A stretch of DNA of 64,000 nt from Candidatus Curtissbacteria bacterium. GTDB lineage: Bacteria; Patescibacteriota; Microgenomatia; Curtissbacterales; GWA2-41-24. The notes under the pieces were generated by a model that saw only the letters and a list, made by a program, of their open reading frames with translations, was not told the origin of the DNA and ran no database searches. The DNA is taken from the NCBI GenBank assembly GCA_016183325.1, contig JACPEV010000003.1, positions 82,000 through 145,999 of the forward strand, given 5' to 3'. Position numbers and translations under genes: made by a program. Every line of letters starts with the position of its first letter. Within the stretch, counting starts at the first letter, position 1. This document shows, piece by piece, positions 2,450 to 57,972 of the stretch.

Positions 2450-2812
2450 TCAATCACTTGATGATTTGGTTGTTTCTAAACATTTTGTGAGCTCTTCCGT
2501 TGGTGTCCAGCCGCACTTACCATCGGGCTGTAGTTCGCATCTGGCATTTTTATAACAAGCAAATTCTGCTCGCCACTCGCAAGTAGTGATTACATCTTGA
2601 TCGGAGCAAACTTGGCTGCTACAACCGGTTATTTTGCAACCATCGGTTGACGTGGCTTTAGATTTCGGACTTGATTGAGCAAAAGGTGTTGGGATTGGTT
2701 GGGTTTTGACATTTTTGACGAGGAGGCTGTGGAGAAAAAAAGTTCCTGCGACGAAAAAGCAAACGAGCGCAAGGCCGATTAGGACAGGAGGGGTGAGATA
2801 ACCGCGGCGCAT
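2450..2812 (-). CDS. membrane-anchored Cys-rich hypothetical protein, paralog 3 of the MRRxxYLTPPVLIGL family
   Basis: N-terminus MRRGYLTPPVLIGLALVCFFVAGTFF matches paralogs 1 and 2; the upstream catagtttaatcat is also conserved; C-terminus has 8 Cys. Confidence 0.55.
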   Translation of the reverse strand: MRRGYLTPPVLIGLALVCFFVAGTFFLHSLLVKNVKTQPIPTPFAQSSPKSKATSTDGCKITGCSSQVCSDQDVITTCEWRAEFACYKNARCELQPDGKCGWTPTEELTKCLETTKSSSD

Positions 2813-6571: not shown

Positions 6572-6834
6572 ATCCGAAATACGCAGCACGAAATTAGTGC
6601 ATAAAGAAATTAGTTACTGGAAATTAGAAAATTGTAATGGAAAGTAGAAAATAGAAAATGGAGAATAAATTATAACTATTTTCCAATCTCAATTTTCCAT
6701 TTCCAATTTTGCGAAGCAAAACTTCGCTTTCCAGTTTCTAGAAACTATTTTCTAGAATACAGAATTGTTTCGTATTTCGGCCGGGGACTTTTTCCTGGAG
6801 TTTAATACTTTTTCCCGTCTGGGGATCGTTTTGG

Positions 6835-8211
6835 GTGCCACATTATGTTGCTTATTACATTATTCTTTTTGATATTTTGTGGTTTTATAAATCCGGATCT
6901 TTGGCGCTAACTTCCGTGATTTCTCATCTAAAGATGAACGCGGCAAAAAATTATGACTGGCTTGCGGATGCAAAACGCTTGCCAAACTTTAAAAAAATTC
7001 ACCACTTGATTGTGATTCCAACTTTTAAAGAACCTCTGCACACACTCGAGCGAGGTTTGGATTCTTGCGCAAGTCAGGATTTTCCCAAGAAACAGATTTC
7101 GGTTTGTTTGGCTTTTGAAGAACGGGAGGGAAATGATGCACATGAGAAGGCCAGAAAGCTTGCGGCTAAATACAAAAATAAATTCGCCAATCTCATTACT
7201 ACTTTTCATCCGGAGATCCCAAGTGAGGTTAAAGGTAAATCTTCGAATGAAGCATGGGCCGGGAAATATACCAAGAAGATTTTGGTTGATGTGCAAAAGA
7301 GAGATATAAATTACATCACGGTCACGTCAAAAGACGCGGATGGAGTTTTATCCGAGAAATTTCTTTCGGCTTTAACTTATCAATTTTTAACTTCCGAAAA
7401 TCGTCATTTACTTTTTTGGCAACCGGTTGTTCTTTATTACACGAATATTTGGAAGGTACCGGCGCCAATTAGGGTGATGAGCACTCTTGGCTCTGTTTGG
7501 CAAACTGCAATGAACACCAGGACAGACAAGCTGGTTAACTTTTCGATTTATTCAACATCCTTGAAACTTTTGGACGATGTTGGTTATTGGGATGTTGATG
7601 TGATTCCTGAGGATTTTAGAATTTTTTTCAAAAGCTATTTTGCAAAAAACGGGAAAGTGGAAGTCGATCCGATATTTTTGCCGGTTTATGCAGATGCGGC
7701 AGAATCGACAAGCTACATGAAATCGCTTGTTAATTTTTACGAACAGGAAAAAAGGTGGGCTTGGGGAGTTTCCGATGACGCTTATTTTCTTAAGAAGTGG
7801 ATAACTCATACTCATATTCCGTTTTGGCATAGAACTATTCGAGTTTTTAGAGTAATTGCGGACCATTTTTTGTGGCCGGTTAATTGGTTTGCGATAACAG
7901 TTGGTGCCAATATTCCGGTACTTTTAAATCCGCTTTTTGCACAAACTGTAATGGGGCAAAATCTGCCGAGAGTTTCGTTTGGAATTTTGACAATTTGCTG
8001 GCTATTTTTGGCGGTGATTCTGATTGTTGACATGAGACAGAGACCAAAACGCACTGAGAAGGTTTCAATTTTCCGTAAAATTTTAGCACCGGTGGAGTTT
8101 GTGCTTTTGCCAATTGTGACTTTAATTTTTTCGGCGCTACCGGGCATTGATGCCCACACCAGACTGATGCTGGGGAAGTACTTGGAGTATAGAGTAACAG
8201 AGAAAGTCTAG
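6835..8211 (+). CDS. GT2-like membrane glycosyltransferase (N-terminal GT-A domain plus C-terminal TM region)
   Basis: VIPTFKEP…, KDADGV (DxD-like), multiple C-terminal TM helices; the start may be the internal Met at ~6934. Confidence 0.5.
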   Translation: MPHYVAYYIILFDILWFYKSGSLALTSVISHLKMNAAKNYDWLADAKRLPNFKKIHHLIVIPTFKEPLHTLERGLDSCASQDFPKKQISVCLAFEEREGNDAHEKARKLAAKYKNKFANLITTFHPEIPSEVKGKSSNEAWAGKYTKKILVDVQKRDINYITVTSKDADGVLSEKFLSALTYQFLTSENRHLLFWQPVVLYYTNIWKVPAPIRVMSTLGSVWQTAMNTRTDKLVNFSIYSTSLKLLDDVGYWDVDVIPEDFRIFFKSYFAKNGKVEVDPIFLPVYADAAESTSYMKSLVNFYEQEKRWAWGVSDDAYFLKKWITHTHIPFWHRTIRVFRVIADHFLWPVNWFAITVGANIPVLLNPLFAQTVMGQNLPRVSFGILTICWLFLAVILIVDMRQRPKRTEKVSIFRKILAPVEFVLLPIVTLIFSALPGIDAHTRLMLGKYLEYRVTEKV

Positions 8212-8404
8212 GGGCGCTTCTGGCAACAGACGGTTTGGGGGCTAATGAATCGATTTATTAGCGATAAAAATGTCGAAGTGAATCAATTTTTTAAATTTTG
8301 AGGCTGAAAACATCACAAATTATGACATGTCAAAAAATGTGATGGTTATGTTTTAACCAAAGAAGATTCTACGAATATTGGCTATAAGGAATTTTGCCTA
8401 TGGG

Positions 8405-8821
8405 TTATTTGTCAATGCCGAGGCGCTTGTAGCCGTTTTTGGCAAAAGTTTCGTCAAAGCCAAATATTTCGTTTGTCTCGAACTCATCGGCAAAGGCCAT
8501 GACTAGACAATCTGTAAAACTGACAGACTTTGGTTGTCTTTGGAATTTCTCTAATGTCTTTTTGCGAATTTGCAATGTTGCCTCCATAATGGATAGCTCT
8601 TTTGATTCTAAAAACTTCCAGCCAGTTTCGACTGATAATTCATGGTTAACTTTTTTCCCTAAGACATTTAGAGTTTCTGCAAATATTTCGCCAGGAATAA
8701 TTAATGCACGGTTTGTTTTTTTAATGTGGATGCTTAAACTAACTGCAAGATTATGGTCGTGGTCGACAGTTGATGCTTGTGCCACAAGCGCACTCGAGTC
8801 TGCAATTACTGGAGTTTTCAT
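8405..8821 (-). CDS. vapC: PIN-domain toxin VapC
   Basis: PIN signature with the acidic C-terminal GFDETF; paired with a small upstream ORF. Confidence 0.8.
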   Translation of the reverse strand: MKTPVIADSSALVAQASTVDHDHNLAVSLSIHIKKTNRALIIPGEIFAETLNVLGKKVNHELSVETGWKFLESKELSIMEATLQIRKKTLEKFQRQPKSVSFTDCLVMAFADEFETNEIFGFDETFAKNGYKRLGIDK

Positions 8822-9130: not shown

Positions 9131-10687
9131 ATGTTTCCCCTAACAGAGAATTATTTGACGCGTGGTTTTTGGGGTGATGAGGCGTGGACTTCGCTGATTT
9201 CGCAACTTCCGTATTTGCAAATGCTAAAAACCACGGCAGCGGATTTTCATCCCCCCGGATATTACACGGTGGTTGAGCTTTGGTATAAGGTTTTCCCGCC
9301 AACGGAAGTTTCGACAAGAATCGTTTCCATTGTTTTTTACTTTTTGACGATTTTTTTGGTTTATAAGCTTGCATCTCTTCTTATTAATTCCACCTCCGAG
9401 GAGCCCCCTTCGACTGCTTCGACTACGCTCAGTACGGGTTTGCTCAGGGCAAGCGAGCTCACCTCGGAGGTGAATAGGGATAAAGTTGAAGGGTCCAAGC
9501 TCGCACCTTGGGAGGTGATTAGTAAAAAAAGATTCTGGGGACTCTTGAGCGCAATAGTTGTCGCTGTTAATCCAATCTTTTTTACTTATGCGTTTGAAGC
9601 AAGGAACTATACGATGTTTGCATTTGCGTCTGTCGGATCTATTTATTTTTTGATTGGAATTTTGAACAAATCCACCTCCGAGGTGAAAAGTACTCCCACC
9701 TCGCAGGTGACTGGAGGTAAAGTTGAGGAGTCAAAGCTCGCACCTTGGGAGGTAAGTAGGGGTGGTGTTACTAATGTGATCTTTTTTATTCTTTTTTCAA
9801 CCTTAGGCATTTATACCCATTACTACATGTTTTTGACGCTTTTTGCACAGGGATTTTATATTGTACTTTTTCATCGAAAAATTCTTTTGAAAATGATCGG
9901 TATTTATGCAATCATCGGACTTTTATATTTGCCTTGGATGCCTTTTTTGTTGGGACAGCTAAAATCCGTCGGAAGCGGCTATTGGATCGGCCCAATAGAT
10001 GGGAAAACGCACTGGGAGGCAATTTTGCGCATACTTTCTGGAGAATTTGAAAATGGTTTTCGACCATTTTTATTGACACTTTCAATCGGGTTGATACTCA
10101 CAGGATTTTTTCAACATTTAAAAAAGAGGATATTGGCAAAAGCCTACATTTTGATTTGGTTTTGGGCGGTAGTGCCATTTATTCTGGCAACGTTACCAGG
10201 ACTTTCCATTAACGGTTTTAAATTACCCTTTCGACCAATTTTTTTCTGGAGATATTTGATCCCGGCTTCGGTACCCTTGTCGCTGATTATCTTGCAACCA
10301 CTGAGAACACTGAAATTGCAACCACTGAAAATACTGACATTAATCACTGTGATAGCACTGAGTTTGACTATAGATTATCTGACATTGACCCGCTATCCTT
10401 ACACTTTTCGCCAAGTTTATGAACAAAAAGTTTTGCCTGAAATTGCCTCTCGCGATAAAATAGTAACCGTTCTGCCTTCTTTCGCCGAAGTCCTTTACTA
10501 TCGAAATCGTTTTAGACTTGATAATGAACTAATAATTTTGCCAGAGGGAATAGTGCAATTTTCAGGGAAAAGTTTACTAGACGCATATGTGCAAAATGGA
10601 GTTGTAAAAATCGATGACAATCCGGCCGGAAGATATTTTGAGTTGAGACCAGGGCCGAGTATCGAAATGATAGAAAATAGTTTATAG
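9131..10687 (+). CDS. GT-C glycosyltransferase (GT39/ArnT/PMT-like) with two in-frame repeat-element insertions
   Basis: GDEAW DE-motif near the N-terminus and a polytopic membrane body; insertions at 9391-9472 and 9673-9709. Confidence 0.65.
   Translation: MFPLTENYLTRGFWGDEAWTSLISQLPYLQMLKTTAADFHPPGYYTVVELWYKVFPPTEVSTRIVSIVFYFLTIFLVYKLASLLINSTSEEPPSTASTTLSTGLLRASELTSEVNRDKVEGSKLAPWEVISKKRFWGLLSAIVVAVNPIFFTYAFEARNYTMFAFASVGSIYFLIGILNKSTSEVKSTPTSQVTGGKVEESKLAPWEVSRGGVTNVIFFILFSTLGIYTHYYMFLTLFAQGFYIVLFHRKILLKMIGIYAIIGLLYLPWMPFLLGQLKSVGSGYWIGPIDGKTHWEAILRILSGEFENGFRPFLLTLSIGLILTGFFQHLKKRILAKAYILIWFWAVVPFILATLPGLSINGFKLPFRPIFFWRYLIPASVPLSLIILQPLRTLKLQPLKILTLITVIALSLTIDYLTLTRYPYTFRQVYEQKVLPEIASRDKIVTVLPSFAEVLYYRNRFRLDNELIILPEGIVQFSGKSLLDAYVQNGVVKIDDNPAGRYFELRPGPSIEMIENSL
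9391..9472. repeat. 82-bp palindrome-terminated GC-rich element (CACCTCCGAGG…CCTCGGAGGTG), in-frame inside the GT-C gene
   Basis: Exact reverse complement of 37933-38014. Confidence 0.9.
9673..9709. repeat. 37-bp short derivative of the same element (cacctccgaggtgaaaagtactcccacctcgcaggtg)
   Basis: Near-identical to 37587-37623. Confidence 0.85.
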
Positions 10688-10800
10688 AAAGTGGAAAGAA
10701 GTAATGGACATTAGATAATAGAAATTGGACAATTTTCCAGTTTCCATTTTCCATAACCAATCTCTAGTTTCTAAAAACTAATTTCTTTTATGATTTACGG

Positions 10801-25828: not shown

Positions 25829-25962
25829 TACAGATTAAAAATAGAGATTAGTTAGTGGAAATTGGTAATGGAAATTAGAGATTAGAAATAAGAAAACTAT
25901 TTTCTAATTTCCATTTTCCATAACTATTTTCTACTTTCTAGTAACTAATTTCTATTATCAAT

Positions 25963-36169: not shown

Positions 36170-38794
36170 TCAAATTGTAAATTTCAAATTCCTGCCAAAT
36201 ATCACCAGACCTATGAATCCCAAACTTATTAAGCTTATCAACAACCCTGCTTTAAAAGTATCCGGATCATAATAAAACCTCACCTCATGCTCTCCGCGAG
36301 TTAGAGGTACCGCCCGAAACGTATAATTTGCCCGCAAAATCTCAGTCTCTTCTCCATCAACTTCCGCCTTCCAGCCAAGGTAATAATTATCTGAAATAAA
36401 AAGCAACTTTGGCTGTAAAGATCTAGTTTTAACAATCACCTCTTGTGATTTATAACTAACAACTTCGACCTCACCTTCTCCAAATTGCGGCGAAATCGGC
36501 GAAGGCTTTTCCAAAATCAAAGAATTGCGAAAATCAAAATCGCTGGATAATAATTTTTGAAAGATCAACTTCCTCCTTCGCCTGTCAATCTCACGAGTCG
36601 TCAAATTAGTCACATCAGCTAAGTTAGGAGGTCCCTCATAACTAGAGGCTAAAAAAATCCTCGCCAGCACCTGGGGATTTTCAAAAACTCCATAGTCTTT
36701 GTGTTCAAATGCTTTCTTAAAATTATTTGCCTCCATCACTTCAAAATCACCGCTTTTGGCAACAACATATTTGATCCCGAGCATATTAAGGAGTCTTCTC
36801 CTGTTTTGATTCTCAATCAGAAATTTCGCATCTCCTACTGCCCCAAGTCCCGCGTCCGATCTCAGATAAAAATCTTCTATGTTGTTACCCTGCATCGCGT
36901 AGGTAAACTCTCCGTAAGAACGGTTATTCAAAGAATCATAACCTTCTGGCCAGAAAAGAGAATATTGGCTAGCAAAATTATTGCCCAAAGCCGCCTCACC
37001 CACCCCCCAGGACCTAGAATACCCCTGGTTATTTTTAAGAAAATCTAAAATCGGAGTTGGCGGAAAAACATACTTTGCTTCCGAAAACGAGAAATATTTC
37101 TGAGAAAAATAAAAAATATGCAAAAAGGCTATCCCCATGATCAAAACTGCAGCTATTTCCCTTCTTAACCAGTGACCAACAGTGCTTGCAATAATCATCA
37201 AAACAGTGGTTGCAAAAACCGCAACCGGCACGACCAAATTCCTAAGCGAAATCACAGCCGTCTCCTTGGGACTAAATTTCAGAAACTCAATATAGGGGAA
37301 ATTGAAAAATCTAACCAAAAGCAGATAAAAAGCTATCAATAAATACGAAAGGCCGAAGGCCAAAATTATTTTAAAAATTTTTCTGTCTCTCCGCAGCAAC
37401 CACTGATCAAACCCAATCGCTCCTAAAACAGCAATACAAAAGGCTGGAATAAACAATATCCTGTTGGCAATAGAAGTTGATAAAAACGGAACCGGCAGTG
37501 AAAGAAAAAGTTTTGACGTTGGCAAGTCTAAGGTAGTTGAAAGTGCAACCATCCCAAAAATCGCCAAAAATATTACAAGTTTATTATCACCTCCGAGGTG
37601 AAAAGTTCTCACACCTCGGAGGTGTAAACCTGTATAGAAAACAGCAAACGTCGCAAAGATCACTGCAGCAACGCCGACAAACATAATCCCTTCGTAATAT
37701 TGCGCTGCCCCACCTCTGAAAAAATTATGAGTAGCCGGATGACCAAAAATGTCTGGCGCCAAAAAGGTCACTATTGATTGAATTGGCAGCAAAAAGCTAA
37801 ATAAAGTCTCGGAAAGAGCAATCGTCGATCTCCCCGAATTAAAATAAAGCTCGGCAGAAGGCAAAAGCTGCACCGCCGCAATTCCCGCTCCTATCAATAT
37901 CCCAAGCCCGGCTTGGAATAGCTTTTGTATCACACCTCCGAGGTGAGCTCGCTTGCCCTGAGCAAACCCGTACTGAGCGTAGTCGAAGCAGTCGAAGGGG
38001 GCTCCTCGGAGGTGGACTATCTGCCAAATTCTAAAAATTAAATAAGCGGCACTGAAAATCAATAGATAGATTGTAGTCTGCATATAGCCCCCTAAGAGCG
38101 AAGCACCGACCCCAAGAGAGATTAAAGCTAAATACTGCCTCCTGTCTGTAGCTAAAAACTTATCAATCGCCCACAAAATTAACGGTAACCAGACAACCGA
38201 ATGAGGCGACATCACTACTTCCTCTCCCCACGTCAAAATAAAAGGGCTAAATCCAAAAGTTATAGCTCCAAAAATGCTTGCCAGCATCGATAGTTTCCCG
38301 TCACTTTTCTTCTTAATCGTCATTCTGGCTTGTCCAGAATCTTTCTTCATTGCGGATTCTGGAGTCGTTTCACTCCCCAGAATGACGTTATTCGATAGGT
38401 TTCTAAGAAACAAATACATAAAAAACGCCCCCAGAATTGTCGGCGTAATTCGCAGTAGATGCCAAAACTCAACCTGCGACATAAAAAATCCCAAAATATT
38501 CAAAGGATAAAAAACTGCAGTCTGAAAATCGGCCATATGAGGGTGTCCCGAAAAGGCAAAGGGATTCCAAAATGGAACGCTACCTGATCGAAAAGCATCA
38601 AGGGTTACCTTGTAAAATGGCAAGTAAATCCGAAGTTGATCCCAACCGGTATTTTTGTAGGGCAGATTCTCTCCATATGGGGCATAAAAACTCACCAACA
38701 AATGTCCATTCAAATTAACCTTCGAAAGAAATATCGGCCAAAAAAGAATCAGAGAAAGAAATGTCAATAAAAGGAGGATTTTGAGCTTCACCAC
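36170..38794 (-). CDS. YfhO-family membrane glycosyltransferase with two in-frame repeat-element insertions
   Basis: N-terminal YfhO region (…FWNPFAFSGHPHMADFQTAVFYP…); insertions at 37587-37623 and 37933-38014. Confidence 0.75.
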   Translation of the reverse strand: MVKLKILLLLTFLSLILFWPIFLSKVNLNGHLLVSFYAPYGENLPYKNTGWDQLRIYLPFYKVTLDAFRSGSVPFWNPFAFSGHPHMADFQTAVFYPLNILGFFMSQVEFWHLLRITPTILGAFFMYLFLRNLSNNVILGSETTPESAMKKDSGQARMTIKKKSDGKLSMLASIFGAITFGFSPFILTWGEEVVMSPHSVVWLPLILWAIDKFLATDRRQYLALISLGVGASLLGGYMQTTIYLLIFSAAYLIFRIWQIVHLRGAPFDCFDYAQYGFAQGKRAHLGGVIQKLFQAGLGILIGAGIAAVQLLPSAELYFNSGRSTIALSETLFSFLLPIQSIVTFLAPDIFGHPATHNFFRGGAAQYYEGIMFVGVAAVIFATFAVFYTGLHLRGVRTFHLGGDNKLVIFLAIFGMVALSTTLDLPTSKLFLSLPVPFLSTSIANRILFIPAFCIAVLGAIGFDQWLLRRDRKIFKIILAFGLSYLLIAFYLLLVRFFNFPYIEFLKFSPKETAVISLRNLVVPVAVFATTVLMIIASTVGHWLRREIAAVLIMGIAFLHIFYFSQKYFSFSEAKYVFPPTPILDFLKNNQGYSRSWGVGEAALGNNFASQYSLFWPEGYDSLNNRSYGEFTYAMQGNNIEDFYLRSDAGLGAVGDAKFLIENQNRRRLLNMLGIKYVVAKSGDFEVMEANNFKKAFEHKDYGVFENPQVLARIFLASSYEGPPNLADVTNLTTREIDRRRRKLIFQKLLSSDFDFRNSLILEKPSPISPQFGEGEVEVVSYKSQEVIVKTRSLQPKLLFISDNYYLGWKAEVDGEETEILRANYTFRAVPLTRGEHEVRFYYDPDTFKAGLLISLISLGFIGLVIFGRNLKFTI
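37587..37623. repeat. 37-bp short palindromic element (copy of 9673-9709)
   Basis: cacctccgaggtgaaaagttctcacacctcggaggtg. Confidence 0.85.
37933..38014. repeat. 82-bp element, exact reverse complement of 9391-9472
   Basis: Direct comparison. Confidence 0.9.
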
Positions 38795-39394: not shown

Positions 39395-39695
39395 ATTTTA
39401 GCACATGCTGCCTAAAAGAGCGTATAAATAAACGGAGCAACGCCGCTAGCTTGGGCAAAAATTAAAAGCAGGCCAAACACTAAAAGCACCACCACAAATG
39501 GGATCAAAAACCACAGCTTCGCTTTCCACAAAAATTCCAAGAGCTCTCCAGCTTCTCCGCTTCTTGAAAAAAATGATTTAAGAAATCTCATTTTTAAATT
39601 GATCTAATTAACCTAATTGCTCTAATTGGTCTAAATAATTTAGAAATTTGAAAATTTTGAAATTAATTAGAAATTAGAAATTAAAAATTAGAAAT

Positions 39696-41483: not shown

Positions 41484-41489
41484 CAGGAA

Positions 41490-41524
41490 AATTGAAAATT
41501 GAAAATTGAAAATTGAAAATTCAT
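41490..41524. repeat. (GAAAATT)x5 tandem repeat
   Basis: Read directly. Confidence 0.9.
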
Positions 41525-46902: not shown

Positions 46903-47694
46903 TCAAGTATAAACCTCTTGCCTAACATCTCTGTATAAGTCAATACCAAATATTCTTAAAAACCAATACTTTAATATCTCATACCAAAAGCGAAGGTTAT
47001 GTGGCTTAAACCACTTATACAATTCATAGCCAAACTTCAACTTGTGCTCGTGAAGAACTACTGCTTTGGGATTATAAACAATGTCGTAACCAGCGGTGTG
47101 CAAGAACCAAGCATACTCTGCATCCTCGCCTTCTGAGAGTTTTTCATTAAAAGGTCTTTTTACCCAAATAGATTTTCTGATAGCACAGCATCCGCCTGCA
47201 AAATTGAATATTTCGGTTCTTGCTTTTCCTATTTCAACTATGCCTGTAAACATTTTTCGTTTAGTTGAATATCTGACCAATTCTTTCGGAAACCTAGAAG
47301 CAGGCCAGTATGAAGGGTAACCGTAACCTTTCTTACCAGAAATCGTGTATTTGCCGTAAGCCCCCCCGACTTTATTATCCTTAAAAGACCCAATCAACTC
47401 TCGTATAAAATCACTTCTAAGAGGAATACAGTCGCCAGAAAGTCTTATTAAATATTCACCTTTTGCTTGTGAAGCACCTTTATTAAAAGCAAAAGCATAG
47501 TTAAACTTTTCTAGTCTAATTTGAACTAATTTAACAGGTAAGGATTTTATATATTCAACCGCACCATCAGTTGAGCCAGAATCTACAACAATAATCTCGT
47601 AACTTCCTTTTAACTTTTGATTAAGAATAATTGGTAAAGACTTTTTGAATAAATCTTTTTGGTTTTTAGTAATAACCACAACCGATGCAATCAT
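46903..47694 (-). CDS. GT2-family glycosyltransferase
   Basis: SVVVITKN…IIVVDSGSTDG. Confidence 0.8.
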   Translation of the reverse strand: MIASVVVITKNQKDLFKKSLPIILNQKLKGSYEIIVVDSGSTDGAVEYIKSLPVKLVQIRLEKFNYAFAFNKGASQAKGEYLIRLSGDCIPLRSDFIRELIGSFKDNKVGGAYGKYTISGKKGYGYPSYWPASRFPKELVRYSTKRKMFTGIVEIGKARTEIFNFAGGCCAIRKSIWVKRPFNEKLSEGEDAEYAWFLHTAGYDIVYNPKAVVLHEHKLKFGYELYKWFKPHNLRFWYEILKYWFLRIFGIDLYRDVRQEVYT

Positions 47695-47836
47695 TTCAAC
47701 AGAAGTATATCAGCAAATTTTATGCTTAATAAAATTGAGTAGAAGTTCTAACAGTCTCGTGCTTGCGGAGGCGAGAGGATGTTTGCTTCGCAAAGCATAG
47801 TGCATTTCATTTGCACTATGTGCGAACCTCTAACCT

Positions 47837-47913
47837 GCGGAAAGTAGTAGACGATGTTAGAACTTTTTACAAAGAGTCTTTAGCTTCTCCAGACTACATT
47901 ATACCCAGTTTTG
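47837..47913 (-). promoter_or_regulatory. repeated promoter/leader element copy A (TATAAT box plus conserved GTAAAAAGTTCTAAC leader), minus-strand oriented
   Basis: ~77-bp element shared with 48481-48560 and 52563-52640. Confidence 0.55.
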
Positions 47914-48469
47914 TTAAATCGTTTTTCAGTTGATCGGTATTAATAAACAGAACAGACTCAGTGCCAAGATTTTTTGCTACGCTAATGTTTTGAGGATTGT
48001 CATCGATAAAAAGAGCCTCCTCTTCTTTGCTTTGGAGTTTGTCAAGGATTATCCTAAATATTTTAGGGTCTGGTTTGCTTACCTTATGATCACTTGAGAC
48101 AACTATCTCATCAAATAAGTCTGTTAGATTGTTCTGTTTAAGGATTGAACGAAAAAAGTTACTCGGACTATTTGTACAAACTCCTATTTTATAATTTGGC
48201 TTAAGTTTTTTTATCAGTTCAACAGCCGAATCATTAATTTTAATAAAACTCTTAAACTCTTTTTCAACTTTTTCTGGCTGACTATTAACTAAGGAAGCGA
48301 GTTTACCGAAGAGCTCCAGCTCTAACACCTCCCCTCGATCAACAGGTTTAAAGTAAGCTTCTTTAAGCTGTTTAGCTTTCTCCTCTGAAAAATATCTACC
48401 GAACCAAAAAGGAGCAATTTCAGAGCATATTACTCCATAGAAGTCAAAGATAATAGCTTTAATTTCCAT
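47894..48469 (-). CDS. HAD-superfamily hydrolase
   Basis: IIFDFYGV (motif I variant), FIDDNPQN (motif IV); start at the internal Met. Confidence 0.6.
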   Translation of the reverse strand: MEIKAIIFDFYGVICSEIAPFWFGRYFSEEKAKQLKEAYFKPVDRGEVLELELFGKLASLVNSQPEKVEKEFKSFIKINDSAVELIKKLKPNYKIGVCTNSPSNFFRSILKQNNLTDLFDEIVVSSDHKVSKPDPKIFRIILDKLQSKEEEALFIDDNPQNISVAKNLGTESVLFINTDQLKNDLTKLGIM

Positions 48470-48480
48470 TGTAAAAATGA

Positions 48481-48560
48481 GCGGAAAGCCGTGGACGATG
48501 TTAGAACTTTTTACATGCAATCTCTAGCTTCCCAGCAATATATTATACCAACTTTTCCAG
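48481..48560 (-). promoter_or_regulatory. repeated promoter/leader element copy B (TGGTATAAT extended -10 plus conserved leader)
   Basis: See 47837-47913. Confidence 0.55.
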
Positions 48561-48617
48561 CCTTTACTTCTGCCTAAAAGGTAATTATTTTATGCTACAC
48601 TAAATATAATTCTTAGT

Positions 48618-50237
48618 ATGGTAAAACAACGAAAATCTTCATCAAATAAAATAGCCTTTATTATTATTCCTATAATTTCTCTTTTCCTTGCATTTTCAGT
48701 AATGAGAAAGGCGGTTTATTATTCTTCTGAACCTACCGAAGATAAAAATTGTCACCTGTTGTACCCATTTTCCTTTACTGATCCTTCAAAGGCCACAACT
48801 ATTGTTATGCAAAATCCACCAGCAACAATTCCGTTTTTGCAAAAAGGTGGAATTATCGATGATATTAGTTGTCTAAACAAAACTTCTGTTTATGGAATTG
48901 TGAAAGTAAATGGAGTTGAAGATATTCAGAACACTATATTATTTGCAAAAGAAAATAATATAAAAACTTCAATCGCTGGTATTAGACATAGTATGGGAGG
49001 ACAGTCTTTTTTTAGAAATGCCGCTGTGCTTGATATGACTGGCTTTAATCAAATGTCCATTGATGAAGAAAATAAAATCTTAACCGTTCAAAGCGGTGCT
49101 ACCTGGCATGATATTCAAAAGTTCTTACATCCAAAGGGACTAGCAGTAAAAGCTATGCAATCAAGTGATATCTTCACAGTTGGAGGTTCAATATCAGTAA
49201 ATGCTCATGGAATGGATCATCACGTTGGTTCTTTGGGAACAACTATTAAATCCATGCGAATAATGTTGAGCGATGGCACAATTAAGACTGTAAGTAAAAC
49301 ACAAAGTCCAGAACTTTATAGATTAGTTATTGGTGGTTATGGATTATTCGGGGTAATTTTAGATGCTGATATTGAGGTTACTAACAATGAAATGTATGAG
49401 CGTGAGACATATGTGATTGATTACAAAGAGTTCCCAAGAGTTTTTGAAGAAATAATGGCAAGTGGCGACAAATCTGGACTAATGTATGGACATTTATCAA
49501 CTGGGCCAAACGCTTTCTTAAAAGAAGTAATTATCTACAATTTTAGAAGAACGGATAATTTTAATGGCCAAATACCTCCCCTCCAGGAAAAATCTAATGT
49601 GGGGCTTAAGAGATTATTTTTGAACCTTGGAAAAACAGGTACTATTGGCAGGCAAATTCGCTATTGGGCAGAGAAATATCTACAGCCTCGTTTTGAATCT
49701 TGTGCCGTCTCCCGCAATGATGCAATGGGAGAACCCGAAGCATGTTTTATATCGAGAAATCAAGAGATGTATGAATCTGGTAAATTCCTGAGAAATAATC
49801 TCAAAAATGATACCGACATTCTCCAAGAATACTTCATCCCAAGAGATAAGTTTATTGAGTTTGTTGATGGCATGAGAGAAATTCTCCAAAAGAATAAAGC
49901 AGTTGTTCTTAATTCTGGAATAAGAGTTGTGAATAAAGAAGATAATTTTTTAAATTATGCTCCAGAAGATGCCTTCGCTATGGTACTTTACCTAAATCAA
50001 AAGATGACATCTGAGGAAAATGAGAGGATGGAAAAATTAACTCGAAAGATGGTTGATTTAACAATCAGTCTAGGAGGTAAACCCTATTTACCTTATCAAC
50101 TATATTTTACCGATGAGCAGCTACAAAAAGCATACCCAAATATAAATCAGTTTTTTGCTCTTAAAACGCAGTATGACCCTAATCTTTTATTTATGAGTAG
50201 TCTTTATGAGAAATACTCCAAGGTTCGAACTTTTTAA
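48618..50237 (+). CDS. FAD-binding PCMH-type oxidase, DprE1/alditol-oxidase-like, with an N-terminal TM anchor
   Basis: TVGGSISVNAHGMDHH…GGYGLFGVI follows the DprE1-type FAD-binding pattern. Confidence 0.7.
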   Translation: MVKQRKSSSNKIAFIIIPIISLFLAFSVMRKAVYYSSEPTEDKNCHLLYPFSFTDPSKATTIVMQNPPATIPFLQKGGIIDDISCLNKTSVYGIVKVNGVEDIQNTILFAKENNIKTSIAGIRHSMGGQSFFRNAAVLDMTGFNQMSIDEENKILTVQSGATWHDIQKFLHPKGLAVKAMQSSDIFTVGGSISVNAHGMDHHVGSLGTTIKSMRIMLSDGTIKTVSKTQSPELYRLVIGGYGLFGVILDADIEVTNNEMYERETYVIDYKEFPRVFEEIMASGDKSGLMYGHLSTGPNAFLKEVIIYNFRRTDNFNGQIPPLQEKSNVGLKRLFLNLGKTGTIGRQIRYWAEKYLQPRFESCAVSRNDAMGEPEACFISRNQEMYESGKFLRNNLKNDTDILQEYFIPRDKFIEFVDGMREILQKNKAVVLNSGIRVVNKEDNFLNYAPEDAFAMVLYLNQKMTSEENERMEKLTRKMVDLTISLGGKPYLPYQLYFTDEQLQKAYPNINQFFALKTQYDPNLLFMSSLYEKYSKVRTF

Positions 50238-50393
50238 TTAAAGAAAAAATTCATACTTTCAGCTTCAGAAACTCTGCAAAGTTAGAGGAAAGACTAAAAC
50301 TGAATCTGACAGAATTTATCCGAGTTAGAACTAGATGAAAATGCTGTCTTAACGCCCCGATTGGATCATGCTTTTGACCAAAATCTCACTCTG

Positions 50394-50480
50394 CGGAGGC
50401 GGCAGGATTCGAACCTGCGACCGAGTTTCCCCGGTAGTCGTTTTCGAAACGACCGCACTAGTCCACTATGCGACGCCTCC
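50394..50480 (-). tRNA. tRNA-Ser (anticodon CGA), type II
   Basis: Acceptor GGAGGCG/CGCCTCC, anticodon loop TTCGAAA, T-loop TTCGAAT. Confidence 0.65.
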
Positions 50481-50507
50481 CAAGTTTACCCTGAGTTTAT
50501 CGAAGGG

Positions 50508-50580
50508 TGCGCCCGACAGGACTCGAACCTGTAACCGTTAGCTCCGCAAGCTAATGTTCTATCCAGTTGAACTACGGGCG
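50508..50580 (-). tRNA. tRNA-Arg (anticodon GCG as read)
   Basis: Acceptor GCGCCCG/CGGGCGC, anticodon stem TTAGC/GCTAA, loop TTGCGGA, T-loop TTCGAGT. Confidence 0.55.
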
Positions 50581-50749
50581 CAAATCGCGGCGCTGTAATT
50601 ATAGCTCAGTTGATAAATCTCCTCCATCCCCGCGCACTCGGAGGAATTTTTAAATAACAATATTAACAAAATATGCAACGATCATTGAATAAAATGTAAT
50701 TTTGGTCTACTTGGAAATTAGAAATTTGGAATTGAAAACTCCTCGAGTT

Positions 50750-51367
50750 CTACTCGAGGTTAATCCTCTTCTGAAGCGCCGCGGCCCACCTGTCAAAAAG
50801 AGTATACACCGGAGCATGATAATAGTGGAGATGCTTCTCTAAATTATCCAAAATCGTCTTCTCATCTACTGTTGAAAGCAGAAGTATAAGTCGTGACGGA
50901 TAATGCAGGTACGTTTGTACAACCAATAATCTATCATCTCCCCGCTTATCAAACCAGAAAGAATCCAACTCGTCCCATAAAAATGCTCTTCTGCCGGTAA
51001 CTATCCCCATATTTGTAATTTTGTGCTCGATCACCTCAGGCTCGACTGTTGCAAAAACCCAAATTACAAAAACCAAAGCAAAAATTACTCCCACTGCAAA
51101 AAATTCGCTAAAGGCAACCGCCAAAAGAATTAATATCAATGCAAAAAGAGCAGTTTTGGTAAAATATTTTTTTGTCCTCGCCTTAAAAATTCTAACCGGA
51201 GATTTCCAGGAAACAATAGGTTTTGCCTCCAAAGCCGCTTGATGTTTAGCATCAAGTTCCTCCTTGGTAGGCGGTCTTTCAGGCCTATCCAGTTTCTCAG
51301 CTGATTCCTTTTCTGGCTTTGGCTCTTTTGCAGAATCAGCAGAGTTCTTTTTCTCAGGTTTAGCCAC
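50750..51367 (-). CDS. membrane hypothetical protein
   Basis: Lys/Glu-rich N-terminus followed by two TM helices. Confidence 0.45.
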   Translation of the reverse strand: MAKPEKKNSADSAKEPKPEKESAEKLDRPERPPTKEELDAKHQAALEAKPIVSWKSPVRIFKARTKKYFTKTALFALILILLAVAFSEFFAVGVIFALVFVIWVFATVEPEVIEHKITNMGIVTGRRAFLWDELDSFWFDKRGDDRLLVVQTYLHYPSRLILLLSTVDEKTILDNLEKHLHYYHAPVYTLFDRWAAALQKRINLE

Positions 51368-51493
51368 TTCAATAATCTTTCTAATATTAAGTTTATCACA
51401 TTCCCAAAAATGTCAAGAAGTGCAGGGGGTATCACCTTCATCATTCACCATCGGGTATAATTATACTGTGCTGCGGGGTCTGTAGAAGAGAAA

Positions 51494-51874
51494 TCAATAC
51501 GGAGATTCTACTGAGAGTGAGGGTATAAAATCAAAATCCTTTTGATTTTTAGTTAAAAGTCTTGCTTTATATTCAAGTGCTGTTGAAGCAATTAGGCTAT
51601 CTGCTAAAGCTAAAGAATAATTAAGATGAAATTTTTTAATCAACTCAAAAGAGCGCTTACTAATTTTGTCAGTAATCTCCATTACCGAAAATTTCGAAAT
51701 TAAATCTTCTGCAATTTTTTGTGCTCTTTTATCCCTAGCCCCCTTCACAAACTCTATTGCTGTTACAACAGAAATAGAATATTTATGCACCTTATAGGTA
51801 GAATTCAGAAATTGTTGAGCTTTAGTAAAACCGCGTGCATAGTCGACAATTACATCAGTATCAATAAGCATCAT
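51494..51874 (-). CDS. vapC: PIN-domain toxin VapC
   Basis: MMLIDTDVIVDY…. Confidence 0.8.
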   Translation of the reverse strand: MMLIDTDVIVDYARGFTKAQQFLNSTYKVHKYSISVVTAIEFVKGARDKRAQKIAEDLISKFSVMEITDKISKRSFELIKKFHLNYSLALADSLIASTALEYKARLLTKNQKDFDFIPSLSVESPY

Positions 51875-52137
51875 TGAAACAAAAGGGGTCGTTTATTCCT
51901 CGGTAGCTTAGCGAGCACATCTAGTGCCTGGCCAATTTCGTCTTGATACCTCTCCCAACTCTGCCTAATTTTTTTAAAATCAGTTTTAAATTGTCCCATT
52001 GTAATTGGCTTTAGAAGTAATCCTTGTTCTGTCTGTTCGACCTCAAGCAATGAGTTCTCCTCTAGGTTAAGATTTTTTCTCATTTTATTAGGAATAGTGA
52101 TTTGTCCTCTAGGCAAAATTCTCACAACTGTCTGCAT
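51871..52137 (-). CDS. AbrB/MazE-family antitoxin
   Basis: RGQITIPNKMRKNLNL. Confidence 0.7.
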   Translation of the reverse strand: MQTVVRILPRGQITIPNKMRKNLNLEENSLLEVEQTEQGLLLKPITMGQFKTDFKKIRQSWERYQDEIGQALDVLAKLPRNKRPLLFQ

Positions 52138-52276
52138 TCTACAGATATGATAATCGGAAAATCAGATTTTTTCAATAACTAAAATAGTGGAAACGCTGCG
52201 GTGCCTAGTTGATTGAAAATGGTGAGTTTATCGAACCACTATGTTGGAACCTTCTTTAAGAATTATTTTTCAGATG

Positions 52277-52513
52277 CTATTTTTTGGGTTTAGCAAAATA
52301 AATTACCCAACTACCAAATGTTAACGCAAGGAATACAACAAGGAATACTAGTAAGGTATTAATTCCTCCAGGTATGATGCCTTCTAATACTTCGCTCCTC
52401 GAGATACCTCCTTGTGTTGGATCAGCAACAGTTTTTGAATATTGAAAAACGACGACAAGAAGTACAGCATAGAAAATAGTCAATATAGTAATTAACAATG
52501 CTATATTCTTCAT
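52277..52513 (-). CDS. small two-TM membrane protein
   Basis: ORF plus TM. Confidence 0.4.
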   Translation of the reverse strand: MKNIALLITILTIFYAVLLVVVFQYSKTVADPTQGGISRSEVLEGIIPGGINTLLVFLVVFLALTFGSWVIYFAKPKK

Positions 52514-52562
52514 ATTTCAAATTGGACCCTATTAAGATTAAAGTCCTAATGTTATTAACTGT

Positions 52563-52640
52563 GCGGAAAGCAGTAGATGACGTTAGAACTTTTTACGCAC
52601 AATCCCTTGCTTTCCCACAGTACATTATACCAAGTTTTCC
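52563..52640 (-). promoter_or_regulatory. repeated promoter/leader element copy C (TGGTATAAT plus conserved leader with GGAAAGCA…TGCTTTCC closing stem)
   Basis: See 47837-47913. Confidence 0.55.
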
Positions 52641-52696
52641 AGGTGATATCAGCCAGTGATATTGACATATGATATAATAGTTACTAGAATACATTT

Positions 52697-52978
52697 ATGT
52701 TCAATACAAATATTATCCCAGCCAGAAACCTTCAAAAATCTTATAAGTCTATTATTGAAAGAGTTAAAACTAAAAAGAATGCAATAGTCTTAACCACTAA
52801 TAAAAAGCCTCAGGCTGCTATTGTTAGTCTTGAGGACTTAGACAGAATCCAGCAAGCTAAAGCCATGCAGTCTTCTCTAGACATTCTTAAGTTGGCAACT
52901 GAAAGCAAAGAAGAACTAAAAAACCTACCAGCCGATTTGCGCAAAAGGGCAAACAAAATTTTATACAGCATAAAGTAA
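52697..52978 (+). CDS. Phd/YefM-family antitoxin
   Basis: YefM-like N-terminus. Confidence 0.65.
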   Translation: MFNTNIIPARNLQKSYKSIIERVKTKKNAIVLTTNKKPQAAIVSLEDLDRIQQAKAMQSSLDILKLATESKEELKNLPADLRKRANKILYSIK

Positions 52979-52980
52979 AT

Positions 52981-53403
52981 ATGGCAAAGAGCGTTGTGGT
53001 TGATTCAGACGCAATCTTTGCTATTTACAATCCCAACGACCCACTAAACACTCAAGCAACTCAGACTTTCCAGCAGTTGATCGCCCGTGAATTTCAGCTT
53101 ATTTATCCTGTAACGGTTCTTTTTGAAGTAATCTCACTATTCCAACGTGTTTTACCAACACCAGCAGTAACTAAAAAACTTATAGATATGATTAAAAATG
53201 ATCAGTTTCTAGTTCAAGCCATTGATAGCGATATATTAAAAAAATCAGCAGAATTGTTTGACCCTACCGGAAGTAAGAAAAATACTTTAATTGATTGTTC
53301 AGTAGTTATTGTTGCTAAAAAGATAAAAGCTAGTGGCGTTTTTGCCTATGATAGTTTCTACACCAAGCAAAGTCTAAAATTAGCTGAAGATTTAATTGGT
53401 TAG
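52981..53403 (+). CDS. vapC: PIN-domain toxin
   Basis: VVVDSDAIFAIY… PIN. Confidence 0.75.
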   Translation: MAKSVVVDSDAIFAIYNPNDPLNTQATQTFQQLIAREFQLIYPVTVLFEVISLFQRVLPTPAVTKKLIDMIKNDQFLVQAIDSDILKKSAELFDPTGSKKNTLIDCSVVIVAKKIKASGVFAYDSFYTKQSLKLAEDLIG

Positions 53404-53571
53404 AACTTTTTGCAAGAAAGTAAAATAAAGCATATTTAGGTTCCAAAACCATTTATAGTTATAGAAAAAGCAAAATCTGAAGCTGATAAAATTTTGTCCG
53501 AGTTAGAACTCGATGAATATGCGCACTTGACGGCCCAATTGGCCTCTATTTTCTCCCAAAATCTCACTCTG

Positions 53572-53656
53572 CGGAGAGGGTGGGATTCGAACCCACGGTA
53601 GCTTGCGCTACATTCGTTTTCAGGACGAACGCACTAGCCCACTATGCGACCTCTCC
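53572..53656 (-). tRNA. tRNA-Ser (anticodon TGA), type II
   Basis: Acceptor GGAGAGG/CCTCTCC, anticodon loop CCTGAAA (C33 is unusual), T-loop TTCGAAT. Confidence 0.6.
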
Positions 53657-53661
53657 AAGTG

Positions 53662-53745
53662 CGGAGGGTGTGGGAGTCGAACCCACTCTGGACTTTCGCC
53701 CAGCAAGTTTAGCAAACTTGTGCCTTACCGTCCGGCCCACCCTCC
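53662..53745 (-). tRNA. tRNA-Ser (anticodon GCT), type II
   Basis: Acceptor GGAGGGT/ACCCTCC, anticodon loop TTGCTAA, T-loop TTCGACT. Confidence 0.65.
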
Positions 53746-54731
53746 CAAAATGTATGATTTTTTAAAAAGAAACTCTTTTTAAAATTCCCTGTTCCAATTT
53801 CTTTAAGATAGCTCTTAACTTCGCTTTTATTATATAACCATACTTTATATCTACCATCATTCTTGGGCTTGTAACCTAGGCCCCTTAATCCTTCATGAAC
53901 AAAATCCAGAAGCGGCAAAGATCGATTCGTAAAAACAATCTTTGGATATGAATATAGCTTCCCATTTACTTTATAGCGATGCATCGCAAAACAACCGTCT
54001 GTATCAACTAAACCGCGAATGCATGCTTTAATATATTCAGGCTTCAACAAAATCCATTCTGGAACTCCAACTTGTAAAAGTACTTTATTACCTCTTCTGA
54101 GACCTTTTTGCTCTAGGTATTTTATCAGATTAATACTTGAAACCATAACTCTTACGACTTTCTGAGTTTTATGTCTAAATAGACTTGGTTTTAAACCAAA
54201 AAGTTTCTCTATTAAATCGCGCACATAAAAAACATACTCCTCATCAACTTCACTGTTCAGGTAGATAACACATTGAAAATTACTTAATCCTCCATCACCA
54301 AGTAAAATTCCAATAAATTCTGCTAAATTCTCGTTTTCCTCGGGAATATTTATGTTTTTCGCCAAATTTCCGAGAACTCTTCTTTTTTTAATTCCATTTA
54401 AACCGCCCCTTCTACGTCCTTCAGGAGTGCCCAAATCCCCATGCAATTTAAAACGAACCATAGCACCTTTGCGACATATCTCTAGTTTTCTAGCAAACCA
54501 GCGGTCAATTAAGATTTTCTCCTGTTCTGGAAAGAGAACTTCATATTTTTTTGCAAGCAACTTCACAGCTTCAGAAGGTGGGCACAACTTTTCCCTCCTC
54601 CAATCAAAAAGGGTTCTTCGATGCACACCCACTTCGTCTGCAAGCTGTTTCGGAGAAAAACCACTATTCCTAACTACTCGCTCAAAAAAGTCTCTCTGCT
54701 CTCCAGTTCTAAATAAAACTCTCTGTTTCAC
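53709..54731 (-). mobile_element. free-standing double-motif LAGLIDADG homing endonuclease with an N-terminal HTH; its 3' end runs into tRNA-Ser(GCT)
   Basis: Two LAGLIDADG motifs (LAEFIGILLGDGGL and IRGLVDTDGCF); the last ~12 codons are encoded by the 5' half of the tRNA gene. Confidence 0.75.
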
Positions 54732-57103: not shown

Positions 57104-57135
57104 CTAAAAAGGTCTCCTTCGGGAGACCTTTTTCT
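57104..57135. terminator. bidirectional rho-independent terminator (AAAAAGGTCTCC-TTCG-GGAGACCTTTTT)
   Basis: 7-bp GC stem, UUCG tetraloop, A-run and T-run on either side. Confidence 0.8.
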
Positions 57136-57972
57136 GTGGAGATGGCCGGGTATGGCCCGGCGTCCAAGATAAACTTATCAAAAACTTCTACAAGCTTAGT
57201 TAATCTTTAAAATCTCGCCTCACCTCTTTGTCGATTAACAAACGGAAACAAGGCAAAGATCTAAATTTCAGGCTAAGGTTAGATCAAAACCAAAGTCCTA
57301 CTCTCGGCTAAGTTTGTGCCCCAAATAACCTCACCGAGAAAAGGTTAAAGAGACAAGCTCAAAGCTTAAGCTTATGCAAAAGCTAGAGCTGGACTTGGGC
57401 TAAAGGTTTCCCTCAAAGCCGCAAGACCTCGTGCAAATAAGTTTCTTGCACTTAAATTTGATTCAAAGCTTGACGCACTTTAGAATCGTATTCGGCTTGC
57501 AGTTTTTAATGTGCTATCCTGTCGAAACAATACATCCCCGTACTTTAAGGAGACAACTTGCGGTTTTCTCCCTACGGGTCGATCTTTTAGATCAGACCTT
57601 AATATTACTCTTTCCCTTTAAAGGATAAATTTAGACTGGCGGAGCCAGATTTAAATTTATCTTGAAGAACAAAAACAAATTATAGCAGTGTTTGGCCTCA
57701 AAAGCAAATTTTTGGAGTGTCGTAACTCTTACAAAGTCGGTGGTTGGTGATATGGATGCATTTGGTCTGTTTGGTTTTAACAGACTGAGGCGATCTGATC
57801 AAACCTGTGCATGCCTGTATACTGAGTCAGAAAGAAGAAGTTTAAGACCGCTTCTTGTGATTTAAATCCCTTTGTTGTTTTGTACCTGATCTTACTTCTG
57901 CCAATTGCTCTTTCCGTGGCATTGTTGGTTGTGGGCAAATCATCTCTTGGATGTTTAAGGTATGCTGTATAG

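Follow-up and report, generated by a model that had tools for sequence, protein, structure and literature searches.

A 64,000-nucleotide stretch of a Candidatus Curtissbacteria genome (contig JACPEV010000003.1, positions 82,000 to 145,999; hereafter the window) carries three copies of a short minus-strand repeat, which we call copies A, B, and C. A repeat finder recovered them as 86-nucleotide direct copies, 72-80% identical (family D5; 47831-47916, 48475-48560, and 52557-52642). An earlier note on this DNA, made from the sequence alone, had read them as a reused cassette of a promoter and a structured leader set before three unrelated genes. The gene context it gave is correct: copy A overlaps the last codons of a HAD phosphatase gene on the side of a family-2 glycosyltransferase (GT2) gene, copy B lies upstream of the HAD gene, and copy C precedes an open reading frame (ORF) of 78 amino acids that has no Pfam match (Table 1). 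The repeat itself and the fixed position of its TATAAT box were likewise borne out. The 21-nt core GTAAAAAGTTCTAACRTCRTC occurs three times, always on the minus strand (0.02 occurrences expected in shuffled sequence; none of 100 shuffles reached three), and in all three copies TATAAT stands exactly 33 nt upstream of it, within TGGTATAAT in copies B and C and within GGGTATAAT in copy A. Two further traces had escaped the earlier note, a partial fourth core match (AAAAAGTTCTAAC) and an inverted 11-mer near copy A. The motif was not found upstream of HAD orthologues in three other contigs (L001-L003), so the element is not tied to the HAD gene. The HAD protein has an identical counterpart in a Candidatus Curtissbacteria genome, of the Microgenomates group.

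Table 1. Features of the window discussed in the text (positions are those of the window; islands and junctions are as proposed here)
Feature	Position	Strand	Remarks
Long direct repeats	100-476, 1374-1817, 2705-2803		up to 216 nt with 90% identity; 141 nt with 100% identity
AT-rich intergenic repeats (families D4, D6, D9)	6608-6751, 10675-10791, 25859-25958, 39664-39695, 41489-41519, 50708-50738		units like AATTAGAAAT and TTTCCA(T/G)TT
Palindromes CACCTC(C/G)GAGGTG (families D12, D16)	9460-9759, 37588-37624		several copies
GT2 gene	46903-47694
Copy A flank before GT2	47743-47836	-	strong hairpin, then ATCCTCTCGCCTCCGCA (47764-47780)
Inverted 11-mer	47743-47753		near copy A
HAD unit	47837-48480		ends in copy A
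Copy A	47837-47916	-	core 47850-47870; TATAAT 47898-47903; end at 47837 in ..CTTTCCGC
Copy A, opposite reading	47837-47933	+	..NLRKVVDDVRTFYKESLASPDYIIPSFVKSFFS, stop; putative orphan recombinase C-terminal tail and attachment-site P' arm
HAD phosphatase gene	47894-48469		last codons overlapped by copy A
Copy B	48481-48560	-	core 48494-48514; TATAAT 48542-48547; end at 48481
Copy B, opposite reading	48481-48577	+	..NERKAVDDVRTFYMQSLASQQYIIPTFPAFTSA, stop
Island ending at copy B	48481-50392		FAD-binding oxidase gene (48618-50237); starts at tRNA-Ser(cga)
Repeat family D7	50315-50415, 53493-53593		101 nt, 78% identical
Recombinase-body relic	50316-50392	+	last ~26 codons, LSELELDENAVLTPRLDHAFDQNLTLR; 73% identity to L055
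tRNA-Ser(cga)	50393-50480	-	target of island 48481-50392
78-aa ORF	52277-52513		preceded by copy C
Copy C	52563-52642	-	core 52576-52596; TATAAT 52624-52629; end at 52563
Copy C, opposite reading	52563-52659	+	..TVRKAVDDVRTFYAQSLAFPQYIIPSFPGDISQ, stop
Island ending at copy C	52563-53570		PIN/antitoxin cargo; starts at tRNA-Ser(tga)
Recombinase-body pseudogene fragment	53395-53570	+	L055 residues 476-543; 60% identity; two in-frame stops
Partial fourth core match	53399-53411	-	AAAAAGTTCTAAC
tRNA-Ser(tga)	53571-53656	-	target of island ending at copy C
340-aa ORF	53709-54731	-	helix-turn-helix region and LAGLIDADG_3 domain
tmRNA gene	57134-57539	-	Rfam, 106.5 bits

Further copies, whose existence the earlier note had left to be checked, proved to be widespread. 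Loci were gathered by an exact 19-base core pattern, which returned 29 loci from representative genomes and 96 from metagenomes, with about 104 distinct instances; when the retrieved DNA was searched with a profile, about 45 diverged copies were added to these. The representative-genome loci belong mostly to Microgenomates (Woyke-, Davies-, Woese-, Curtiss-, Gottesman-, Levy-, and Roizmanbacteria), and a pattern scan of viral contigs gave chance matches only. Several contigs hold more than one copy, among them L080 with five in 7 kb, L128 with four, and L057 with six. The block common to all copies spans positions -6 to +33, counted from the core, and its last ten bases are lineage-specific. 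Most copies lie nearest to the 3' ends of genes, and the orientation of the element is uniform along a contig whatever the orientation of the genes, including L110, where all genes are on the other strand.

When read on the plus strand, each of the copies in the window encodes ..RK[AV]VDDVRTFY.[QE]SLA..YIIP.F.. followed by a stop codon. Clustering of the ORFs over all loci yielded one small GIY-YIG family and one family of large serine recombinases (LSRs). In intact members of the latter, of 534 aa in L131 and of 559 aa in L113 and L102, the core, as its reverse complement, forms part of the reading frame close to the C-terminus (..QRCPLVDDVRTFYMDPDW.., within the longer stretch ..QRCPLVDDVRTFYMDPDWEDK.., stop, in L131; ..SWCTTVEDVRTFYEILQ.., stop, within ..DFESWCTTVEDVRTFYEILQESKKCDYYHSN, stop, in L113 and L102). 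The proteins carry the Pfam domains Resolvase, Recombinase, and Zn_ribbon_recom. Judged by these matches, the repeat reads as the C-terminal tail, of about 30 codons, of an LSR family of the candidate phyla radiation (CPR), seen from the opposite strand. What had been called a TATAAT box is the reverse complement of ATT ATA, which encodes Ile-Ile and is preceded by a Tyr codon (Y-I-I), and the conserved leader, once reverse-complemented, gives the codons V-D-D-V-R-T-F-Y. The remaining instances, about 140, are orphans with short frames. As nearly all instances are thus orphan tails, a plus-strand protein profile search of 5.8 billion proteins found only hypothetical ORFs of 36-79 aa. A plus-strand peptide had been considered and dropped, as the frames varied from 13 to 94 codons; it was revived in the form of a recombinase tail once the intact recombinases had been found.

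The pattern of variation follows the same frame. Among about 150 related copies on CPR contigs, substitutions fall at third codon positions of the recombinase frame, and the diverged copies vary at positions 0, 3, 6, 12, 15, 18, and 21, in addition to a change of AGA to CGA, all of them synonymous on the opposite strand. In the 16 copies of the type found in the window, the region from -51 to -1 reads ..AQSLASPQYIIPNFPAF.., stop, with 58 pairwise differences at third positions, as against 34 and 37 at the other two.

The C-terminal half of the L055 recombinase, used as a query, found 24 homologues. All of these share the stretch ..GSN..LKDK.L.I...KPF...LEP.., after which they split, at one alignment column, into two classes of tail. 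The first, ..W[CL]xx[VL][END]DVRTF[FY].., is found in L131, L113, P0058, P0065, P0066, P0068, and P0070. The second, ..R[DE]SNPR.., is found in L055, P0047, P0050, P0053, P0056, and P0067, and corresponds to the translation of the complementary strand of a tRNA T-arm. The second class would represent integrated copies, whose ORF extends past the end of the island into a tRNA gene.

Several reference loci appear to preserve the states that such a split implies. L055, which is syntenic with the window at tRNA-Arg(gcg)/tRNA-Ser(cga), encodes an intact recombinase (7020-8726) whose last codons are the complement of tRNA-Ser(cga), and it has an element of the window type at 2231-2270, 6.4 kb away. 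Joining the two ends in silico gives ..DQSLTL/RRAVDDVRTFYAQSLASPQYIIPNFPTFAST, stop (slashes mark junctions). The locus displays the whole island, with a putative hybrid junction at either end. In L081, a tail of the window type is contiguous with 58 recombinase codons (..EIEQILKTFEPKK..ANPILREAVDDVRTFYAQSLASPQYIIPNFPAFAST, stop), as expected of an unrecombined site within a truncated recombinase gene. The attachment site thus lies inside the recombinase ORF, with the unrecombined state of L081 and the recombined state of L055 aligned at one column. L119, where tRNA-Arg(ccg) follows tRNA-Ser(cga) after 28 nt, reads as an empty site, while L071 has an island of about 1 kb and an element between the same two tRNAs.

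The final ~10 nt of the element resemble the 3' end of a tRNA in the same locus. For tRNA-Tyr, the tRNA end and the element tail are ..CCCTGGAC and ..CGCCTGGAC in L018, ..TCCCCCTGGAC and ..CTCCCCTGGAC in L034, and ..CTCTGGAC and ..GTCTGGAC in L032; for tRNA-Asn in L033 they are ..GGGGAGCCA and ..TCGGAGCCA. In the window, L055, and L022, tRNA-Ser ends in ..C[CT]TCCGC and the element in ..CT[TC]TCCGC. Within the window, the 3' end of tRNA-Ser(tga), ..CTCTCCGC/A, is matched by the tail of copy C, ..GCTTTCCGC/A. TGG, the codon of the conserved Trp, is complementary to CCA, and what had been taken for the 3' arm of a stem is the mimic of the tRNA-Ser 3' end at the recombination junction. The distance to the end of the element block is 27 nt for a T-loop-like GTTCTAA, and that from GTTCGAA to the end of tRNA-Ser is 22 nt. 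In serine integrases, the outer recognition motif is placed 5 bp further from the centre in an attP half-site than in an attB half-site (PMC3783163). The two spacings fit such a 5-bp shift, and the GTTC.AA motif may be the one bound by the zinc ribbon.

The boundary at this junction is sharp. The PIN/antitoxin island shares homology with L022, L036, L074, L118, and L119 that breaks off at 52562/52563, where copy C has its last base, and identity to copy C is 94-97% up to +33 and 0-45% beyond. The ends of pairwise matches accumulate at 0/-6, +23/24, and +33/34. A tRNA gene within 400 nt was seen for only 3 of 147 elements; the link between element and tRNA runs through the other end of the island.

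At that other end, the window holds remnants of recombinase bodies. The stub beside tRNA-Ser(tga), taken as 53395-53598, matches the L055 recombinase with E = 5e-17 in tblastn, and the stub that adjoins tRNA-Ser(cga), taken as 50316-50426, does so with E = 6e-10; in both, the frame continues into the tRNA. Both are captured by repeat family D7, which lies directly downstream of the two tRNA-Ser genes and whose plus strand encodes the last codons of the serine recombinase (..ELDENAVLTPRLDHAFDQNLTLR) reading on into the tRNA. The stub beside tRNA-Ser(tga) starts at an IG(S)NF motif, and this motif is the partial fourth core match. In front of the GT2 gene, the segment ATCCTCTCGCCTCCGCA matches the 3' end of tRNA-Ser(cga), and next to it is an LSR relic resembling GAGTGAGAT (47743-47763). 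This flank of copy A, the structured leader of the earlier note, has a strong hairpin ahead of that segment and appears to be another decayed junction of tRNA-Ser and recombinase.

The motif I-G-S-N-F is encoded by GGTTCGAAC(T/C)TTT, which is T-loop-like and near-identical to the GTTAGAACTTTTT of the core. Many relics, the stub beside tRNA-Ser(tga) included, end at this motif, and in many loci it lies ~85-95 nt after the core.

Taken together, these cassettes are most probably the junction scars of integrative islands that were moved by an LSR family common in CPR bacteria (Microgenomates) and inserted at tRNA-Ser genes. The coding identity of the repeat, its tRNA mimicry, the sharp boundary, the stubs beside the tRNAs, and the intact and unrecombined reference loci were all observed directly, while the order of the integrations and the exact crossover point are those that we infer from them. 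In the free circular element, attP would lie inside the last ~35 codons of the recombinase gene, and the arm that encodes ..W-x-x-x-V-[DE]-D-V-R-T-F-Y.. would double as a DNA mimic of the 3' half of the tRNA, with a T-loop-like GTTCTAAC, an acceptor-strand-like run, and the discriminator base in that order. Recombination with the 3' end of a tRNA gene would linearise the island within the recombinase gene. The recombinase body would come to lie against the tRNA and read on into it, and the detached tail of ~30 codons would become the far end of the island, which on the opposite strand takes on the look of a promoter and leader. As the recombinase bodies in the window have been deleted down to pseudogene stubs, its islands would be fossils.

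Four observations weigh against this interpretation. Serine-integrase attP sites are usually pseudo-palindromic, with both arms alike around the central dinucleotide, and in L113 and L131 the arm beyond +33 showed, by eye, no clear inverted similarity to the conserved arm. Secondly, elements occur in tandem, both in the window, where copy A directly follows copy B, and in the arrays of four to six elements in L080, L128, and L057; serine integrases are not expected to reuse hybrid junctions, so that simple repeated integration does not account for these units. Thirdly, orphan tails at orthologous sites are 81-91% identical, as against 69-79% for the neighbouring genes, and such conservation points to some present-day function beyond that of a scar. 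Finally, as the loci were gathered by an exact 19-base pattern, the conservation of the core is partly by construction.

The first alternative, unlikely but the strongest of the three, is close to the idea of the earlier note. Transcription from the TATAAT box could yield a cis-regulatory leader, or else a small tRNA-like minihelix RNA, and the hairpin of this RNA with its conserved loop AAAAAGUUCUA would control or process the downstream gene. The box is invariant in all 16 window-type copies, always at -33; its Ile codons are always ATT ATA, where other third positions vary, and the stem begins where transcription would begin. Hairpin cells are paired in 78% of cases, compared to 41-49% in shifted controls, showing that the inverted repeat is real; a stem with a G-C-A end resembles an acceptor stem with its discriminator base. 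In 79 of 110 cases (72%) the gene downstream shares the strand of the element, and in L071 the element lies 5 nt before tRNA-Arg. The GGAAAGC and GCTTTCC arms of the earlier note do exist, yet as an RNA only copy C folds well (z = -4.7), with copy B moderate (z = -0.9) and copy A poor (z = +0.7), folding no better than shuffled sequence. The 5' arm is missing from ~90% of the related copies. Six pairs show double changes, but the covariation score of 0.194 (0.164 in shuffles) was reached by 24 of 500 shuffles and is within the range that the tool reports for unconstrained alignments. On inspection, the core and the lineage-specific tail did not pair with each other in any consistent way. Rfam 15, run on the window and 20 loci, returned only tRNAs, tmRNA, and one group I intron, at the gathering threshold as well as at E <= 10, and matched none of the copies. 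Moreover, the element does not keep to the 5' leaders of same-strand genes; its orientation on a contig is the same even where all genes are opposite to it (L110), and its variation is in phase with the codons of the opposite strand. A shared cis-regulatory RNA, as the earlier note had it, is therefore unlikely.

The other half of that proposal, a mobile promoter module, fared better: the element is reused, its origin is mobile, and its -10-like box is perfectly conserved and is in most cases aimed at a gene or tRNA on the same strand. TGn precedes TATAAT in copies B and C and is lacking in copy A, and the -35 region is weak (CTGATA in copy C). The invariance of the box and the conservation of the orphan tails make an outward promoter for displaced genes or tRNAs a reasonable inference, and it is plausible that the TATAAT in the scar serves as a putative promoter for the genes that flank it.

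A second alternative, which we consider very unlikely, is that the element is an integron-like attC site and that the region is made up of gene cassettes in an array, which a site-specific recombinase acting on complete sites would have shuffled. Arrays of four to six elements on other contigs, one per gene boundary and in a single orientation, suggest such a system, as do upstream ORFs whose stop codons fall within ..TTCTAAC or GTAAAAAG, a partner sequence about 90-110 nt downstream that is inverted but imperfect (GTTCGAACC; following copy A, GTTAGAAC), and a cargo of accessory genes and toxin-antitoxin pairs. However, no tyrosine recombinase was detected in the 135 loci or the window: a jackhmmer search with a CPR tyrosine recombinase against the 1540 ORFs of all loci and the window returned only the query itself. 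Unlike attC sites, the core is recombinase coding sequence and the tail a tRNA mimic, and we found no integron literature for this bacterial group. Least probable is that the element is a MITE or REP-like miniature transposon, or a small ORF translated from the plus strand. Although the repeat is interspersed, intergenic, and multi-copy, and gene callers annotate ORFs of 36-79 aa over it in other genomes, it has no terminal inverted repeats or target duplications (one 11-nt inverted match near copy A, none near copy C), is uniformly oriented on each contig, clusters near tRNA genes, and offers plus-strand frames of 13-94 codons that often lack a start codon or contain internal stops (L017, L074).

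Arrays of three to six elements, with one element per gene boundary and a single orientation, were seen in L080, L128, L057, L110, and L087. Each element in these arrays is trailed by a conserved stretch of ~90 nt (TTTTAGAGC..ACAATCTAA), which also follows tRNA-Tyr in L034. The arrays look cassette-like, and simple repeated integration does not explain them. The commonest neighbours of the element are genes for GIY-YIG nucleases of 80-106 aa (13 ORFs in 12 loci, including L021, L049, L063, and L085), which in at least four loci start 30-165 nt past the end of the element on the same strand.

The scar interpretation can be extended to a broader proposal, which we put forward tentatively and hold to be somewhat less probable than its opposite. 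Serine integrases with a tRNA-mimicking attP in their own last ~35 codons would be widespread in CPR bacteria. As attP lies within the integrase's own gene and integration takes place at the end of a tRNA, integration would swap the C-terminal tail (from ..VDDVRTFY.. to ..RDSNPR..). Selection would then have kept the detached tails, which, with a tRNA-like hairpin at the 5' end, would act as outward promoters of the displaced downstream genes or tRNAs, and they may have been reused as secondary landing sites, giving rise to cassette-like arrays.

In its architecture of Resolvase, Recombinase, and zinc-ribbon domains, the family resembles known LSR systems such as the integrases of Listeria phage A118/LI, Bxb1, and phiC31. 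The conserved arm of ~25-27 bp and the sharp break in homology at the junction are likewise similar to LSR attachment sites, and the motif of the element arm is more distant from the junction, by 5 bp, than that of the target arm, which matches attP and attB half-sites of LSRs (PMC3783163). Unlike in usual LSR systems, the site lies in the coding sequence of the recombinase itself, the target is a tRNA 3' end that is mimicked by an arm of the element, and junctions accumulate in tandem. Neither a recombination directionality factor nor a palindromic partner arm was recognised.

A closer parallel in this respect is found in the archaeal "suicidal" integrases of the SSV, pTN3, and pT26-2 types, in which attP lies in the integrase gene and the gene is split upon integration into a tRNA gene (PMC8371274). 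These are tyrosine recombinases (Pfam PF16795), described as exclusive to Archaea, and they leave orphan integrase fragments beside tRNA genes and at island ends, which favours the capture of islands (PMC8371274). The family described here shares the site in the integrase ORF, the splitting of the gene by integration into a tRNA gene, and the orphan fragments. It differs in being a serine recombinase, in being found in bacteria (Candidatus Curtissbacteria and other Microgenomates), and in that only the last ~30-35 codons are detached. Because the body would read into the tRNA and thereby gain a new tail, the enzyme may remain active. In the literature searched, we found no description of such tail-splitting for CPR serine recombinases.

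Insertion at the 3' end of a conserved gene by a serine recombinase, with tandem pile-up, also recalls the staphylococcal cassette chromosome (SCC) islands. These are moved by Ccr serine recombinases, and the 3' end of rlmH/orfX is repeated directly at each junction; short direct repeats, all oriented alike, separate the tandem islands, and many units have no recombinase of their own. In contrast to the protein-coding target and its copies of ~15-20 bp in SCC, the family described here would use a tRNA and its own C-terminal codons. Outward-facing promoters are known at the ends of insertion sequences and integrative elements, and here too a -10 box is found at the very end of the element, facing the flanking host genes. 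Unlike in those elements, the box of this putative promoter doubles as the codons Y-I-I of a recombinase tail.

If this reading is correct, an apparent regulatory RNA becomes a marker of island boundaries, and a single profile of 34-40 nt could delimit islands and their cargo in CPR genomes. Mobile elements of these bacteria are poorly charted, and the cargo seen here comprises toxin-antitoxin pairs, GIY-YIG genes, glycosyltransferases, and a HAD phosphatase. So far, the only recombinases described to lose or exchange their C-terminal tail when they integrate are archaeal tyrosine integrases (PMC8371274), and a bacterial, serine-type version would bear on the evolution of directionality and of immobilisation ("gene capture"). 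For a new serine-integrase clade, the analysis also provides computationally defined attP/attB pairs directed at tRNA 3' ends; enzymes of this class are much used in genome engineering.

A number of further features were noted in the surroundings of the islands. The 340-aa ORF beyond tRNA-Ser(tga) has a domain of the homing-endonuclease type, and its 3' end overlaps a tRNA-Ser(gct) call. A tmRNA gene is present at a similar distance from the element in L036 as in the window. In L020, a Patescibacteria contig with two elements, the group I intron (RF00028, 50.8 bits) lies at 4517-4815, near tRNA-Ala and tRNA-Pro. The cumulative GC skew of the window peaks near 34-36 kb and has its minimum near 58 kb, and the repeat region therefore lies in a stretch in which the G-rich minus strand carries most genes. 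Other repeats of the window include AT-rich intergenic units; palindromes, which may be terminator hairpins or another repeat family; and long direct repeats at its start which, spaced ~1.27-1.33 kb apart, are probably tandem paralogous genes.

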